In this document: piece after piece, positions 2,679 to 45,364 of the stretch | Layout of the letters: the number at the start of each line of letters is the position of its first letter | Position numbering within the stretch: the first letter of the stretch is position 1 | IMG/VR virus record: IMGVR_UViG_3300009873_000020 | Coordinates: 1,387-65,386 of that record | Direction: 5' to 3' (one strand) | Length of the DNA stretch: 64,000 nucleotides | DNA from: a virus | Lineage: Duplodnaviria > Caudoviricetes | Made by a program: the position numbers and the translations under genes | Notes under the pieces: generated by a model | What the model saw: only the letters and a program-made list of their open reading frames with translations | Database searches by the model: none | Told to the model about the DNA's origin: nothing

Positions 2679-3447
2679 AACATGCGCCTGTTGTAAGCAC
2701 AGCAAATCGATTGACGAATTTGGGGTTGATAAACATCGAAAGGACGGGCGTAACACGCGGTGCATACTGTGCCGTCGAGCGGCAAATGCTCAATGGCGCA
2801 AAGATAATCCAGAGAAAAGCAAAGCAATCTGGGATAGATATTACACAACTCATCGAGACATCAAACTCGAACGAAAACGGCAATATCGAGCTAATCTCGT
2901 TGTAAAGGCTAAAGATCTTCAGTATTCAAAGCAATGGCGTATCAATAATCCTGAACGTGTAAAACGGCGGAGACGGAACACGTATATTAGAAGAAGAGCG
3001 GAGATTCTGGCATGGCATAGTCAGTATCGCAAACGAAATCGTGCAAAGTATAATGCTTACCAAAAGCGATGGGAGCTGAAGAGCCCGGAGAAGGCGCGGG
3101 CTTCACGATTGGCCAGAATGGAGAGACGAAGAGCAAGACTTCGCGAGGCACCGGGGAATTATACTTCATCTCAGATACTAGCTATGTTGATTGAGCAAGC
3201 TTACTGCTGTTTTGCATGTAATGCAGAGATTGCTGGCTGTTACTCGATTGATCATATTATTCCCCTATCAAAAGGAGGGTCGAACGACATCTCTAACATT
3301 CAATTGCTATGCAAAAACTGCAACAGCAGTAAAGGAGATCGAGATCCGATGGTCTGGGCAATCAAAAACAGAAAGCGAATTAAAGAAATGGACTTTATTC
3401 AAGCGCAAGTAAGGAGGAACGATGAAACCGAAAGAGTGTCGAGCTAG
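2671..3447 (+). CDS. HNH homing endonuclease
   Basis: CFAC...IDHIIPLSKGGSNDISNIQLLCKNCNSSKG; N-terminal CxxC pairs; AT-richer than flanks. Confidence 0.9.
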   Translation: MDKTCACCKHSKSIDEFGVDKHRKDGRNTRCILCRRAANAQWRKDNPEKSKAIWDRYYTTHRDIKLERKRQYRANLVVKAKDLQYSKQWRINNPERVKRRRRNTYIRRRAEILAWHSQYRKRNRAKYNAYQKRWELKSPEKARASRLARMERRRARLREAPGNYTSSQILAMLIEQAYCCFACNAEIAGCYSIDHIIPLSKGGSNDISNIQLLCKNCNSSKGDRDPMVWAIKNRKRIKEMDFIQAQVRRNDETERVSS

Positions 3448-5874: not shown

Positions 5875-6327
5875 ATGGATACGCCATTTAAGATGGTTCA
5901 GGTTTTGCCCCCTGCGGCTGACCGATACAACGCAAACCCGAGCACCGACATCGTGAGTCTAGAGAACTTCGAGCGCGTCGTGTTCGTCATCGGCGCCGGC
6001 GCTGGGGACACCGGCACCGCGACGATCACGCTGAACGCCGCCTCGGACAACTCCGGCACGGGCGCCGAGGCGATCCCGTTCTTTTACCGGACGGGGGCTG
6101 CGGACGCCGTCTCGCAGAACTGGACCCAGGCGACGGCGGCGGGCTTCACGACCGCCGCGGCCGCCGACGGTTTGCACCTGGTCATGATCGACGCGGGGCA
6201 CTTGCCGGAAACCAAGCCGTGGGTTTTCTTGACTCTAACCGAAGTCGCTAATGATCCCGTGTTGGCGGGCGCGTGGGCGCTGTTCTTCGAGCCTCGGGCA
6301 AGACTCGACACCGCTGTACTTACTTAA
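5875..6327 (+). CDS. Probable capsid decoration/cement protein
   Basis: Directly after MCP; beta-rich small protein with SD. Confidence 0.55.
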   Translation: MDTPFKMVQVLPPAADRYNANPSTDIVSLENFERVVFVIGAGAGDTGTATITLNAASDNSGTGAEAIPFFYRTGAADAVSQNWTQATAAGFTTAAAADGLHLVMIDAGHLPETKPWVFLTLTEVANDPVLAGAWALFFEPRARLDTAVLT

Positions 6328-6340
6328 TTAGGAGGGTTAG

Positions 6341-6811
6341 ATGCCGAAAGTTAAAGTTATTCGCGACTACGAGGACAAAGACGGAAAGCACCACAAGGCG
6401 GGCGATTACGTCGATGTGAAGGAAGATGCCGAGGTGGAGATGCTGGTAAACAGTGGCGCGGCGGAGAAAGTTCTTTCGTACGAGGAACTCCACACTGCTG
6501 CCTACGGCGGGGCCGACCCTCTGACGCTTGAAAAGGCCAAGGAGGAGTTGCGGCGGGCCCAAGAGGTTGAAGAGCGCCGCGCGAGGATTCGCTACTCTGA
6601 CCCGCAGAACGAGGCGAACGCCAAGATTGCCTACCCCGAGCAGGCCAAGGCTATGGCTCTTCGAGACGAGGCGGTCTTGAAGGAGGCCAAAGAGGGTTTG
6701 CCCGACGACGCCGACAAGCACGCGGACGGCTCGCCGCTTACGAGCGCTGAGCTTGCCGAGCGCGAAGGGTCGGAAGGAGAGGCCGAGGAAGGCAAGCGGA
6801 AGAAGAAGTAG
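6341..6811 (+). CDS. Hypothetical head-region protein (acidic)
   Basis: SD GGAGG; KVKVIRDYED..GDYVDV N-terminus like small head-associated proteins. Confidence 0.6.
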   Translation: MPKVKVIRDYEDKDGKHHKAGDYVDVKEDAEVEMLVNSGAAEKVLSYEELHTAAYGGADPLTLEKAKEELRRAQEVEERRARIRYSDPQNEANAKIAYPEQAKAMALRDEAVLKEAKEGLPDDADKHADGSPLTSAELAEREGSEGEAEEGKRKKK

Positions 6812-6814
6812 CCG

Positions 6815-7396
6815 GTGGCCTGGAGGGAGCTGACCGCACCGCCGGCCAGGCCCGTCAGCTTCGACGTGGCCAAGCAGCACATGAGGCTGAACGGGCACGA
6901 CGAGCAGGCTTACGTCGAGCTTCTGATCGACGCGGCGACGAAGGTGGTGGAGTCTCAGACGCGAAGGGCTCTCATCGCCCGGAGCTTCCGGCTCCACCTG
7001 GATCGGTTCCCCGACGGGCGGGAGATCGAGCTGCCGGTTGCGCCGGTCCAGTCGCTCGCGTCGGTGAAGTACACCGACGGACTGGGCGTCTTGACGACTT
7101 GGGCGGACGCGAACTACGCGCTCGACCAGCGGAGCCTAGTCGGCCGCGTGGTGCTGGCGGACGGCGTCAGTTGGCCCACGGGGCTGCTCGTCGCCCCCAA
7201 CGCCGTCGAGGTGGACTTCACGGCGGGGTACGGCACTACTGAGGCGAGCGTGCCCCAGCCCTTGCGGGCGGCCATCTTGTTTCTCGTGGCCCACTGGTAC
7301 GAGAACCGGGAGGCGGTAAACGCCGGCAGCGTCAACGAGGTTCCAAAGACCTTCGACTACGCGCTCGGCGGCTACAAGATCGTGAGCGTGGTGTAG
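6815..7396 (+). CDS. Head-tail adaptor (gp6/gp15-like)
   Basis: EPVS-like PVSFDVAKQHMR, LIDAAT, AAILFLVAHWYENRE. Confidence 0.92.
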   Translation: MAWRELTAPPARPVSFDVAKQHMRLNGHDEQAYVELLIDAATKVVESQTRRALIARSFRLHLDRFPDGREIELPVAPVQSLASVKYTDGLGVLTTWADANYALDQRSLVGRVVLADGVSWPTGLLVAPNAVEVDFTAGYGTTEASVPQPLRAAILFLVAHWYENREAVNAGSVNEVPKTFDYALGGYKIVSVV

Positions 7397-7711
7397 GTGA
7401 AGGCAGGGAAGCTCGATCGGAGGGTTACGCTCGAGCGTGCGACGACGGAGAACAACTCTTCCGGGGAGCCGGTCGAGACGTGGGCCGAGGTCGTCACCGT
7501 CTGGGCCGAGCTGGTGCCGGTCAGCGCGAGAGAACGCTTCAGCGGCGACGCCGTGAGGGCGAGTAACTTGTACGTGTTCCGCATCCGGCATCTGGACGGC
7601 GTGGACTCGAAGATGAGGCTCAAGTTCGAGGACAGGTACTACAGGATTTTGGGAGTGTTGCCGATCGGCAGAATGGAGACTTTAGAACTAACGACGGAGC
7701 TTTTGGATTAG
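7397..7711 (+). CDS. Head closure protein (SPP1 gp16-like)
   Basis: MKAGKLDRRVTL, W..V.TVWA, FRIRH, MRL. Confidence 0.9.
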   Translation: MKAGKLDRRVTLERATTENNSSGEPVETWAEVVTVWAELVPVSARERFSGDAVRASNLYVFRIRHLDGVDSKMRLKFEDRYYRILGVLPIGRMETLELTTELLD

Positions 7712-42215: not shown

Positions 42216-42461
42216 ATGCAAAAGCTCCTGACGGTCAAGGAGGCGGCTACCGAGATGCGCCTTTCGGCCGGCACGGTCTACAAGCTGTGCGAGTCGAAGA
42301 AACTTCGCCACCAGCGCTGCGGCGAGAACCAGGGCAAGATCCTCATCCCGCTCGATGCGATTGAGGAGTACTTGGGCAAAACGACGGTGGGGGTAGAGGA
42401 GGCTACCCCCACGAGGAAAAAGCAGCCCCAGGTCAAGCTTGAGAACCTGAAGCTTTCTTGA
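42216..42461 (+). CDS. xis: Excisionase-like HTH protein
   Basis: LLTVKEAA..M.LS..TVY.L.....L...R.G; converges on and overlaps integrase 3' end. Confidence 0.85.
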   Translation: MQKLLTVKEAATEMRLSAGTVYKLCESKKLRHQRCGENQGKILIPLDAIEEYLGKTTVGVEEATPTRKKQPQVKLENLKLS

Positions 42462-43506
42462 GGGCAGCTTCGAGGTGAGCATCGGCCTTGTTCAAATGCT
42501 GGTACACCGTCGCTATCATCTGGCCGTTACTGTGTCCCATCAGCTCCGCGACCGAGAGGTGATCCGCCCCGCTTTCCAGCATCTTCTCCGCGAAGCCGTG
42601 GCGGAAATCATACGCCGCCCACGCCTTGCCGAGCTTCTTCTTGAGGCGCTGGAAGCGGCACACGATGGCCTGGGCCTTCCAGGGGGTGCCGTCCGTGTTG
42701 ACAAACAGCTTCCCCTCCCGCGTGGCCAGACGCTTGACGATCTCTATCGCCCGGTCGTTGAGCCGGATGATGCGCCACCGCTTTCTCCCCTTGGCCTCGG
42801 CGGGCGGTATCTCGATCCTTCGAGCGTCGAGCTTGACGTGCCTCGCCTCGATGTGGCGAGCCTCCTGCGGCCTGCACCCCGTCTCCCAGGAGAAGGTGAG
42901 CAGATCGCGGAAAGGCTGGTCCTTGACCTTGGAGAGGATGGCGGCGAAGTCCTCCGGCGTGACCGGGTTTTCCCGCCGCGAGGCCCGAGGCTTTTCGATA
43001 TGCCGGATCGGGTTCGTCTCGATGTAGCCGAGCTTGAAGGCCCAGTTGTAAGGACGCTGAACGTGGATGATGGCGTTCCTGCGGCGCGTCGGTCCCCACT
43101 GGGGGTGAGCCTCCAGCCATTCGAGGATGTGGTGCGGTCGAAGCTCGGCGGCGGGCAGGAGGGCTTTTTCCCCGAGGTGCGTGATGAAGCCCTGGATGAA
43201 GTCGTGGTAGCCCCGGTGCGTCAGGGGCTCCCGGTTATTCCGGCACCAGGAGAGGAATTTGTCGTACAGCACCACCACCGTCAGGCCGGTCGTCGCGGCG
43301 ACTTTTTTCTTGGGCTCAAGCCGCGCCGCCGCCATCGTTGCGTGAAACGCCTGCACGATGGAAGCGGGAGCGTTCCACTTCCCTTTTATTTTTTTCGGGG
43401 CCGGGGCGTCGGCGGGATGCTCGCCCAGGAAATGCCGCCGCCCGTCCTTGTTGACGTACCACCCCTGCCGTTCTTCCCAGAACCAGGGAGACGCGATGCG
43501 GGCCAT
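42433..43506 (-). CDS. int: Tyrosine integrase
   Basis: ETGCRPQE (R), K, YDFRHGFA (HxxR), LMGH, VYQH catalytic residues. Confidence 0.95.
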   Translation of the reverse strand: MARIASPWFWEERQGWYVNKDGRRHFLGEHPADAPAPKKIKGKWNAPASIVQAFHATMAAARLEPKKKVAATTGLTVVVLYDKFLSWCRNNREPLTHRGYHDFIQGFITHLGEKALLPAAELRPHHILEWLEAHPQWGPTRRRNAIIHVQRPYNWAFKLGYIETNPIRHIEKPRASRRENPVTPEDFAAILSKVKDQPFRDLLTFSWETGCRPQEARHIEARHVKLDARRIEIPPAEAKGRKRWRIIRLNDRAIEIVKRLATREGKLFVNTDGTPWKAQAIVCRFQRLKKKLGKAWAAYDFRHGFAEKMLESGADHLSVAELMGHSNGQMIATVYQHLNKADAHLEAALKKASGSQA

Positions 43507-43648
43507 GTGAAAAACCCTCCAGCCTGAGCCATGTTGATGCACCACGGCGGCCTTCGGGTTGCCCGCCCCTGATCGGTTGCAGCCGGTCAGGGGCTTTTCA
43601 TTCTGTCCCGGAATTCCGTACCCAAAACTATCGAATCGTCATAAGTCA

Positions 43649-43695
43649 GTGGACAGAGCCGGGATCGAACCGGCGACCTAAGGATTTTCAGTCCT
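43649..43695 (-). other. attP core: 3' half of tRNA-Phe(GAA)
   Basis: Reverse complement AGGACTGAAAATCCTTAGGTCGCCGGTTCGATCCCGGCTCTGTCCAC; no 5' half; next to int. Confidence 0.85.
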
Positions 43696-43792
43696 GACCG
43701 CTCCTTCAGCCATCCACGGTCTTAAAGTCTTATGGGAACAGAACTTCAGGTGACAAACGAGCACCCTGTTTCTTGCCGCCACTTTGCATATT

Positions 43793-44335
43793 TTAGGGCA
43801 TTTTCTGGCGTTTTCCAGCGGATTCTGTACCGGGTACAGAATGGTTGTTCAGCACCGCCCATTCCCCGCGCAGCTCCAGACATTTGGCGTCATACGCGGC
43901 AGCGGCGGCCTCTTCGCCCGCGAAGTAGCCGAGGTAGTGACGCCTGCCTTCATGGAGGATGCTCGCCCGGAACTTGCCATGCCGCTTGTCAAAAAAGACG
44001 CCTCGATGTCGAGAGGTTTTGTTCTGGGCTTGATGCCGTCTCTTGTTCCATGAGTTCTGGCCCGAGGTCGCAACTCTCAGATTGATTCGCCGACAATCGA
44101 GCGAATCACCATTAATGTGATCACCTTTGTGCTCTTTGCCGATGCCGAGTAAGAGCTTGTGCAAAAAGATCCGCTGAGCCCCTGAAGTCATGGGGACGGT
44201 GGTAATGGCGTAGAACTTTTTCTTCGACTTGAGCGCACACCAGCGAAATGCTTTTACGAGAGCGTAATCGTCGTCGTCAATCTGCGCGTACTGTCCTTGG
44301 GTCAAGCTAATTTCCACGAACCGACAGTAGCACAA
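43793..44335 (-). CDS. HNH-AP2 homing endonuclease
   Basis: I.LTQG..A.IDD.D, DHINGD.LD.RR.NLR.AT..QN, S..RGV, YLG.F..EE.AA.AYD. Confidence 0.92.
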   Translation of the reverse strand: MCYCRFVEISLTQGQYAQIDDDDYALVKAFRWCALKSKKKFYAITTVPMTSGAQRIFLHKLLLGIGKEHKGDHINGDSLDCRRINLRVATSGQNSWNKRRHQAQNKTSRHRGVFFDKRHGKFRASILHEGRRHYLGYFAGEEAAAAAYDAKCLELRGEWAVLNNHSVPGTESAGKRQKMP

Positions 44336-44368
44336 GCTCCTCCCCCCGCGCTACACTCCCCTCGTGCA

Positions 44369-44791
44369 GGTAGTGTCCTAATTTGAACTCAACCGGGGAC
44401 GAGCCTTGATGGCTGCTGCCAAAGGTGATATTGTGTAATACAACAAATAGATGGACGCAACGAGATTCGAACCCGCATCTCATGAATGTGAAGGCCATGC
44501 GGTTTACCGAGTTAACCTATGCGCCCATGTTATTTGCTTCTCGTAAAACGGGACTTGGACTGGCATGCAGGTTATTTTTCGAGGGTTACGCTGCATGCCA
44601 GTCCTTCTTTAGTCCCGCTACAGCAATGTACTAGCGGTGCTGAATCAATCACACATAATCTTGGCTTGATTAGGCATGGCTTAGTAAGGCACGGTTCGGA
44701 CTGGCTAGGCATGGGTGGGGCTTTCAACTCACAAGTTGAAAGCCCTCGTTTTTTATCTAAACGAAAGTTGATTTGAAATTAGGACACTCCC
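44369..44791. mobile_element. 423-bp MITE-like element, 25-bp TIRs, 8-bp target duplication CTCGTGCA, carries a tRNA gene
   Basis: Left GGTAGTGTCCTAATTTGAACTCAAC (44369-44393); right-end reverse complement GGGAGTGTCCTAATTTCAAATCAAC (44791-44767); 22/25 identical; CTCGTGCA at 44361-44368 and 44792-44799. Confidence 0.8.
44452..44526 (-). tRNA. tRNA, most likely Val(CAC), with 9-nt anticodon loop; no encoded CCA
   Basis: GGGCGCA/TGCGTCC acceptor, GGTT/AACC D stem, CATGG/TCATG anticodon stem, loop CCTTCACAT, GCGGG-TTCGAAT-CTCGT T arm, A discriminator. Confidence 0.75.
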
Positions 44792-44794
44792 CTC

Positions 44795-45364
44795 GTGCAG
44801 CCCACCGCCCAAGACATCAAGAACGCTCAAGTCCGGCAGGCCATCGCCGACCGCCAGGCCGAAGAGTACGGCCAGTGCCTGAGATGGGCCTTGGGCGCCT
44901 TCGGGCCCGGCTGGCTCCCGAGCGGCAGACACTTTCTCTTGGACAAGGCGGTTGAAGACGAGTGCCGTAGGACCGGCGACAAGCCTACCCCAGCCGCCAC
45001 GGTCTACACGGTCAAGAACGCCGGAGGGCGCAAGCGGCACTTCACGGTGACGGACGGACGGGTCAGGGAGGTGGCGAGCTACCAGGAAGGTTTCGGCCCC
45101 ATGCTGAACGAGCCCCACCCCACCATGAGGATCGAGATCAGGGGCCAAGAGGTCGCGCCGCACAGGTATAGCCTCTGCTGGGCTCCCATCGAGCTGTACC
45201 ACCCCAAGAGCGCAGATGAGCTAGCGGCCTTACGGGAGAGCCGGGAGGAGAAGAAGGCCGAGAAGGAGCAGGCTAAGTTCAAGGAGGAGAATCCGCTTCT
45301 TGCGTGGGCTGAGCTAGAGGGGCCTGCGTACAATACAGACGAGCCGCCGTCTGACCAGAGCTAG
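44795..45364 (+). CDS. Hypothetical protein
   Basis: 189-aa ORF, GC-rich coding style; GTG start lies inside the right TSD. Confidence 0.7.
   Translation: MQPTAQDIKNAQVRQAIADRQAEEYGQCLRWALGAFGPGWLPSGRHFLLDKAVEDECRRTGDKPTPAATVYTVKNAGGRKRHFTVTDGRVREVASYQEGFGPMLNEPHPTMRIEIRGQEVAPHRYSLCWAPIELYHPKSADELAALRESREEKKAEKEQAKFKEENPLLAWAELEGPAYNTDEPPSDQS

Follow-up and report, generated by a model that had tools for sequence, protein, structure and literature searches.

How does a tRNA gene come to lie between transposon ends in a phage genome, and what would such a tRNA do there? The question is raised by a 423-bp insert in IMG/VR virus record IMGVR_UViG_3300009873_000020, which consists of two terminal inverted repeats with a single tRNA gene between them as its sole gene. 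The record is 65,386 bp long and is rated complete by CheckV; we analysed bases 1387–65386 (the window, 64,000 bp), and positions below are those of the window. An earlier note on this DNA had described the insert as a miniature inverted-repeat transposable element (MITE) of the IS256 family that delivers tRNA genes into phages by means of a host transposase. We consider it probable that the insert is a cassette of the IS1 type, moved in trans, which carries a class of tRNA that recurs in IS1-family elements of soil viral contigs.

The insert is a real transposon, and a non-autonomous one. Its 25-nucleotide (nt) inverted-repeat arms agree at 22 positions (88%) and are flanked by an exact 8-bp target-site duplication, as the earlier note had stated (Table 1). 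The left end begins GGTAGTG at 44369 and the right end, read on its own strand, begins GGGAGTG; the departure of the right end from the lineage consensus includes a rare G at position 3, present in 5 of 260 ends. Within the window, the 17-mer end occurs only at the two tips of the cassette (up to three mismatches allowed; 0.04 occurrences expected). The G+C content is about 47% in the cassette and about 63% in the phage. Aragorn, Rfam and a scan for open reading frames (ORFs) bear out that the tRNA is alone in the interior, with no transposase-domain ORF beside it, and no match to PF03400 was found across the whole 65-kb virus record. ‘Mobile insertion cassette’, a term for insertion sequence (IS) ends around a passenger gene without a transposase, fits the insert better than MITE because a passenger gene is carried; the inverted repeats and duplication of a MITE are present, but so is a gene, and the exact interior was found only once.

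The ends place the cassette in a large IS1-family lineage that is defined by the outer 17 bp (GGTAGTGTCCTAATTTG); nothing beyond these 17 nt is common to its members, and their interiors are unrelated. Matches to a 15-base pattern of the end were found at 89 viral loci and at more than 120 loci in genomes. Lone end matches occur at about the chance expectation in collections of such size, and it is the paired ends that carry the evidence: there are 22 cases of exact inverted end pairs with flanking duplications and, with up to three mismatches, 36 other complete elements with 8-bp duplications, from 42 bp to 4 kb in length, in viral contigs and genomes. Hosts of the lineage include Acidobacteriota, Verrucomicrobiota, Planctomycetota, Bacteroidota, Proteobacteria and one archaeal metagenome-assembled genome (MAG).

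The larger copies encode proteins that match Pfam DDE_Tnp_IS1. The best NCBIfam match of these transposases is the IS1 model (E values of 1e-15 to 1e-20), under its curated cut-off, and they are therefore distant members of the IS1 family. Over about 95% of their length they are 41–47% identical to proteins with the PGAP annotation ‘IS1 family transposase’, encoded on plasmids of Mesorhizobium, Hoeflea and Acidiphilium, and the ends of the two plasmid elements that we inspected are visibly related to those of the lineage. Terminal inverted repeats of the GGnnnTG type are a hallmark of the IS1 family in ISfinder and are found at both ends of the cassette; the 8-bp duplications of the cassette and the 36 other copies agree with the 8–9 bp expected of the family. 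Judged from its sequence, the cassette is a non-autonomous derivative of the IS1 family.

A transposase that could act in trans is encoded in the host phylum. Five planctomycete genomes bear several ends each, and four of the five also bear the transposase; a Planctomycetaceae genome holds a complete autonomous copy (L243) of 3,053 bp, whose ends are exact and which is flanked by the duplication TCATCGCG. Because planctomycete genomes carry ends and transposase together, including this complete copy, mobilization in trans within the host phylum is plausible. The earlier note had proposed a search for an empty-site allele and for other elements with the same ends; the empty site was not found, but the 36 other complete copies were, so that the case in which neither exists does not arise.

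Cargo varies greatly across the lineage and comprises methylase, restriction–modification, TnpB, immunity and antitoxin genes. Some copies have cargo alone (an N6/N4 methylase, TnpB or a Rap1a immunity protein), others pair the transposase with an MmeI-type enzyme or an IGPS gene, and true MITEs of 42–160 bp also exist. The smallest element (L205:1792–1833) is 42 bp long and consists of two 17-bp ends with 8 bp between them, within a perfect 8-bp duplication. A 1,236-bp cassette (L053:7367–8602) has a TnpB gene (OrfB_IS605/Cas12f-like) as its sole cargo, so that the nuclease of one transposon is carried between the ends of another. At 4 of the 36 insertions (L009, L026, L119 and L136), the motif GTCAAGA precedes the target duplication by exactly 12 nt, with near variants at L108 and L121; the motif may be a sequence that these targets share, or a sign of a weak preference in target choice. 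Ordinary tRNA genes are found 11–65 bp from element ends (L052:4284–4358, Met; L007:2114–2187, Arg; L154:7920–7993, Lys), which suggests a further tendency of the lineage to insert close to tRNA genes or to pick them up.

The tRNA of the cassette is the only one in the window (44450–44527, minus strand, by Aragorn; Rfam tRNA model, 49.5 bits, E = 1.6e-9). Its acceptor stem has 7 bp (8 bp counting U-1:A73) and its T stem 5 bp. The D arm is normal, with a 4-bp stem and G18G19, as is the T arm; the variable loop has 4 nt, and CCA is absent from the gene sequence. The anticodon helix exceeds the normal length by one pair, closed by C·U, and the loop CU-UCA-CA presents the anticodon UCA with C37. 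The molecule thus departs from a canonical elongator tRNA, in that its anticodon stem is not 5 bp and its position 37 is not a purine. By model alignment it has the alanine-identity marks G3:U70 and A73. The gene is flanked by a leader and a trailer segment that pair with each other and so ‘seal’ the acceptor end. The nearest planctomycete tRNAs are those for Val(CAC), which are about 74% identical and have the same 5′ strands of the acceptor and anticodon stems.

Aragorn labels the gene ‘SeC’ because of the UCA anticodon and the possible extra U:A acceptor pair. Assignment to tRNA-Sec was rejected, as the gene lacks the long variable arm, 6-bp D stem and G73 of that tRNA and has a 4-nt variable loop, a 4-bp D stem and A73. 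A search with the tRNA against 50,697 phage records returned only chance or T-arm matches, an exact scan of viral contigs for the anticodon arm found none, and a metagenome scan with a tRNA pattern gave 12 chance matches, none of them a tRNA.

Relatives of this tRNA were found with a covariance model, built from the tRNA of the window and that of a viral contig (L022) and run on loci preselected for the transposon end. The resulting class comprises five loci, all with G3:U70 and A73. Three have a full cloverleaf: the tRNA of the window, with anticodon UCA, inside the complete 423-bp cassette; that of L022, with UUA, inside a complete 6.2-kb element; and that of L077, also with UUA, 97 bp inside a solo right end. 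The tRNA of L029 has the anticodon CUA and a reduced D arm, and lies 1.1 kb inside a left end with a probable right end at 3247, without a duplication. That of L003 has the anticodon UAU and no D arm, and lies inside a complete 2,140-bp cassette together with a methylase. Complete IS1-family elements therefore enclose three of the five (window, L003 and L022).

The tRNAs of L022 and the window have the same architecture and loop context and differ by one anticodon base, and the extra pair of the anticodon stem is a Watson–Crick C–G pair in L022. Six compensatory pair changes separate the two genes, with G3:U70, A73, the D arm and the extended anticodon stem all kept. The L022 tRNA belongs to a complete 73-kb phage, in which the 6.2-kb IS1-family element has sister-type ends, a perfect duplication (GGGTCGTG) and its own transposase. 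This outer element spans L247:2105 to L022:4874 (G406:37104–43264) and holds, in addition to the tRNA-UUA, a HARE-HTH ORF and a nested 3-kb IS1-family element that carries an IGPS gene. The L029 element also bears a SocA/Panacea antitoxin-domain gene. Leader–trailer pairing lengthens the acceptor helix in four of the five members (window, L022, L029 and L003), with different sequences in each, and L077 is without this sealing helix. A long hairpin of the same build lies directly upstream of the tRNA in the window, L022 and L077.

Odd alanine-type tRNAs are one recurrent cargo class of the lineage. The idea of a MITE that delivers tRNA genes thus holds in part: such tRNAs are recurrent cargo, at five loci, but cargo is varied and the cassette is not a MITE. 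Two looser tRNA patterns run on viral contigs recovered only L022, and the covariance model run on 50 whole viral records recovered only L077 again, with a prefilter that missed known weaker members. A further tRNA-like gene (L119:6823–6923, plus strand), whose 101 nt include 32 nt inserted into the anticodon arm and whose G3–C70 pair is normal, lies inside a complete 1,253-bp cassette (6227–7479) in a Verrucomicrobiota MAG.

The insertion site itself probably has a history. An exact 17-bp direct repeat (44353–44369 and 44784–44800) brackets the cassette, as the earlier note had observed, and resolves into the 8-bp duplication, 8 bp that match the right tip and one further base. The full 8/8 match between flank and tip, which includes the rare G at position 3, is unique among the 37 complete insertions. 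A general target rule was rejected, as the flank-to-tip match in the other 36 pairs reaches at most 5–6 of 8 positions; a rare type of junction is indicated instead. Among 260 other ends, matches of at least 7/8 are found only at an 8-bp offset, at L008, where two elements stand head to tail with 8 bp between them, and at L032, where a diverged right end is followed by 8 bp and then a left end. At L168 (6/8 match), two different MITEs stand in tandem and the target is triplicated. These junctions indicate that re-insertion into the duplication beside a resident right end recurs in the lineage. The earlier suggestion of a relic of a previous insertion at the same target gains support from this geometry of right end, 8 bp and left end at three other loci, and the segment at 44353–44360 is most likely what is left of a right end that stood there earlier or alongside. 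What little intergenic spacer remains would fit a deletion that accompanied the event. Alternatively, the repeat could reflect targeted insertion beside an end-like sequence, a behaviour known from IS30 and IS911.

The cassette separates two divergent genes, whose start codons are only about 28 bp apart once the insert is removed, and the upstream region of both is now wholly cassette sequence. For the right-hand gene this had been anticipated; the cassette abuts its start codon. The GTG at 44795 is credible as a start codon because homologues of the encoded protein begin 2–6 residues ahead of a conserved N-terminal motif. On the left, the purine-rich ribosome-binding site of the HNH/AP2 ORF (around 44339–44349) lies about 10–20 bp from the element, and the tRNA gene points toward it. 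Inside the cassette, outer pairs lengthen the long hairpin, and a T-rich run follows it on the plus strand; no role was found for the three imperfect repeats. No DNA match to the region or the element was found among the 50,697 phage records, no related phages were found in IMG/VR through both flanking proteins, used singly and with alignment, and the right-flank protein was found in none of 400 Planctomycetota genomes.

Table 1 Features of the cassette and its flanks, in window coordinates
Feature	Position	Strand	Remarks
HNH/AP2-domain endonuclease-like ORF	43793–44335	−	Left flank; same direction as tRNA
ACACTCCC, identical to right tip	44353–44360		Just outside left duplication; 8/8 match
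Target-site duplication CTCGTGCA, left copy	44361–44368		8 bp, exact
Left terminal inverted repeat	44369–44393	+	25 nt; outer 17 nt (44369–44385) identical to lineage consensus
tRNA trailer segment	44442–44449	−	Pairs with leader
Non-canonical 75-nt tRNA gene	44452–44526	−	Model alignment, Aragorn, Rfam
tRNA leader segment	44531–44538	−	Pairs with trailer
Long hairpin upstream of tRNA	44548–44622		Perfect 14-bp core (44557–44570/44591–44604), 20-nt loop
Three imperfect direct repeats, TAGGCATGG type	44662–44714		Between upstream hairpin and plus-strand terminator
Intrinsic-terminator-like hairpin	44717–44756	+	13 pairs and T-run; aimed at gene 44795, 38 bp before its start codon
Right terminal inverted repeat	44767–44791	−	Outer 17 nt (44775–44791) with two differences from consensus
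Target-site duplication CTCGTGCA, right copy	44792–44799		Includes GTG start codon 44795–44797
Conserved 189-aa protein of unknown function	44795–45364	+	Right flank; 204 homologues, about 60–70% identity

We hypothesize that an IS1-type DDE transposase supplied by the host moved the cassette in trans, and that it landed between two closely spaced divergent genes of a temperate phage of planctomycetes, at a target octamer that held the GTG start codon and that probably adjoined what remained of a previous right end. After processing by RNase P and addition of CCA, the tRNA would be charged with alanine by the alanyl-tRNA synthetase of the host, through G3:U70 and A73. The charged tRNA would then read UGA stops and cause a low level of alanine read-through in host and phage. 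Charging by this synthetase is what the identity marks predict; decoding or suppression of UGA by the cassette tRNA we hold to be possible, with a likelihood somewhat short of even. In a broader and doubtful extension, IS1-family transposons would carry a dedicated set of alanine-charged suppressor tRNAs (for UGA, UAA and UAG) from one soil bacterium or phage to another, as portable modules that relax the reading of stops and act as conflict or addiction devices beside the toxin–antitoxin, restriction–modification and immunity cargo.

Several observations weigh against this account. The phage uses the standard code. Of its 46 long ORFs, 18 end in TGA, more than in any other stop, and none of its genes continues beyond TGA into a convincingly coding-like extension; efficient suppression would therefore be harmful rather than useful. 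C37, the extra anticodon-stem pair and the leader–trailer pairing are unusual for a translating tRNA and could block its maturation or decoding, and no sigma-70-like promoter is predicted in the cassette. Searches of phage records, IMG/VR and planctomycete genomes found no empty-site allele, and the searches made for a second copy of the exact cassette found none. The association between the tRNA class and the lineage is counted on five loci only, all of them selected for the transposon end, and for the elements of L077 and L029 the partner end is missing or shows no duplication.

Other uses for a stop-reading tRNA were considered and rejected. Recoding is not seen in the phages of the window, L022, L077 and L029, in none of which the relevant stop codon is reassigned. 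Programmed UGA read-through of a phage gene has no convincing candidate, and the gain from TGA read-through is not specific to real genes. Rescue of stop-bearing transposase genes is not indicated either: about 20 intact transposase genes adjoin lineage ends and none has internal stops (tblastn, all loci), and the single TAG seen elsewhere is isolated. Separately, three consecutive ORFs of the window (6341–6811, 6815–7396 and 7397–7711, plus strand) share one frame and each end in TAG, with a high third-position G+C content across the stops; this run may be due to chance in tightly packed genes.

How the insert moved and what its tRNA does admit of other explanations. For its movement, membership in the IS256 family has next to nothing left in its favour: the ends start with GG and the duplication is 8 bp, features common to many families, and the transposases of autonomous copies with these ends are all of the IS1 type, with no Mutator/IS256-type enzyme among them. 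Equally improbable is an islet mobilized by the phage integrase, with the 17-bp repeat as the core of site-specific recombination. Exact 17-bp repeats do flank the insert, and an integrase gene (42433–43545) lies 0.8 kb away. Yet the repeat is accounted for by a standard 8-bp duplication and 8 bp of right-tip sequence, and the same ends recur in 36 other transposon copies, whose 8-bp duplications are all unrelated. The integrase, moreover, probably has its own attachment site, that of the phage, in a tRNA fragment. This tRNA-like fragment (43650–43715, minus strand) lies between the integrase and HNH genes and scores just below the Rfam tRNA threshold (28.3 bits); its anticodon arm (loop CUGAAAA, Phe-type), T arm and acceptor 3′ strand are intact, and its 5′ half is degenerate.

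For the tRNA, the strongest competitor of decoding, although we think it unlikely to be correct, is a tRNA-shaped RNA that does not decode, has sealed ends and serves as a regulator, a decoy or an addiction RNA, for example against tRNA-targeting toxins, antitoxin modules or host nucleases. The leader–trailer helix in four of five members, built from different sequences, points in this direction, as do C37 with the extended anticodon stem, the SocA/Panacea antitoxin-domain gene of the L029 element, and the report by Mukai et al. of irregular tRNAs that are charged yet unused in translation and are associated with toxin–antitoxin systems and transposon ORFs (PMC5389517). However, four of the five members have anticodons that would pair with stop codons, and all three stops are represented, which is hard to explain without decoding in the ribosomal A site. 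The nucleotides of the tertiary interactions (U8, G18G19, U33 and the TΨC loop) are all kept, and L077 does without the sealing helix. That the tRNA is a decaying, functionless passenger of a neutral or mildly harmful cassette, which disrupts the promoter region of two phage genes, would fit a single copy with no close relatives found and no apparent benefit to a standard-code phage. We judge this improbable, given the compensatory changes that keep the cloverleaf across distant members, G3:U70 in all five despite differing acceptor sequences, and a perfect duplication with a left end identical to the consensus. Descent from tRNA-Val(CAC), with a 9-nt anticodon loop used for four-base decoding or frameshifting, is suggested by the resemblance to the planctomycete Val(CAC) tRNAs and by a loop that can be read as CCU-U-CAC-A-U. 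It is very improbable, because the Watson–Crick C–G pair of L022 fixes a 7-nt loop in the same context and the variable bases fall in the UCA/UUA/CUA triplet rather than in CAC.

What emerges is a transposon lineage, spread across many phyla and phages, that repeatedly carries tRNAs marked for alanine irrespective of their anticodon, with anticodons for all three stops. If these tRNAs decode, they would constitute a horizontally mobile means of altering how stop codons are read, with a bearing on the origin of genetic-code variants, on phage–host conflict and on tools for genetic-code expansion. If they do not, they would form an undescribed class of tRNA-shaped regulatory RNAs. In either case, the invariant 17-bp ends make the lineage easy to survey.

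Among known mobile elements, the closest in type are members of the IS1 family, such as IS1 of E. coli and the elements on the Mesorhizobium loti plasmid CP050295.1 and the Acidiphilium multivorum plasmid NZ_CP041717.1, which share GGTAGTG/GGTAATG ends, 8-bp duplications and a DDE transposase with the lineage. By contrast, the cassette has no transposase, the transposases of its lineage fall below the NCBI curated cut-off, and the ends of the lineage are nearly invariant across many phyla around unrelated interiors. ISfinder distinguishes mobile insertion cassettes (for example, MIC231 of Bacillus cereus), MITEs and passenger-carrying IS (‘tIS’). The likeness to these classes lies in IS ends around passenger DNA without a transposase, mobilized in trans, and the lineage includes all three forms; the point of difference is that the passenger here is an RNA gene. 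We found no paper on tRNA cargo in such cassettes.

Among known tRNAs, tRNA-Sec resembles that of the cassette in its UCA anticodon and possible eighth acceptor pair, and the tRNA-like domain of transfer messenger RNA (tmRNA) shares the G3:U70 alanine identity, but the cassette tRNA has full anticodon and D arms. Under the standard code, natural nonsense suppressors are regarded as rare and costly. Suppressor tRNAs are known in stop-recoded phages, such as crAss-like and Lak phages, and are likewise phage-borne tRNAs with stop-codon anticodons; the phage studied here, however, is not recoded, its tRNA is transposon-borne, and the identity of that tRNA marks alanine rather than glutamine or tryptophan. 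Our literature search found no paper on a tRNA class with 7/5 architecture, an extended anticodon stem and C37 or on its carriage by the IS1 family, and nothing specific on GGTAGTGTCCTAATTTG-type ends, on targeting of end homology by IS1 or on alanine suppressors in phages.

The allo-tRNAs and other irregular tRNAs described from soil Acidobacteria and metagenomes (Mukai et al. 2017, NAR 45:2776, PMC5389517) offer the nearest parallel, as non-canonical soil tRNAs with mis-decoding anticodons and, in some, G3:U70. Some of these G3:U70 tRNAs have wild-type anticodons such as UUA, and those given an amber anticodon inserted alanine in E. coli; irregular tRNAs were also linked to toxin–antitoxin systems and transposon-related ORFs, and some were charged but unused in translation (PMC5389517). 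Whereas the allo-tRNAs are defined by an 8/4 or 9/3 acceptor/T-stem architecture, as in Sec-like tRNAs, the cassette tRNA has a 7/5 architecture with C37, a variable loop of 4 nt and one pair too many in the anticodon stem; moreover, the carrier is here identified as IS1-family elements, and the genome is that of a phage.

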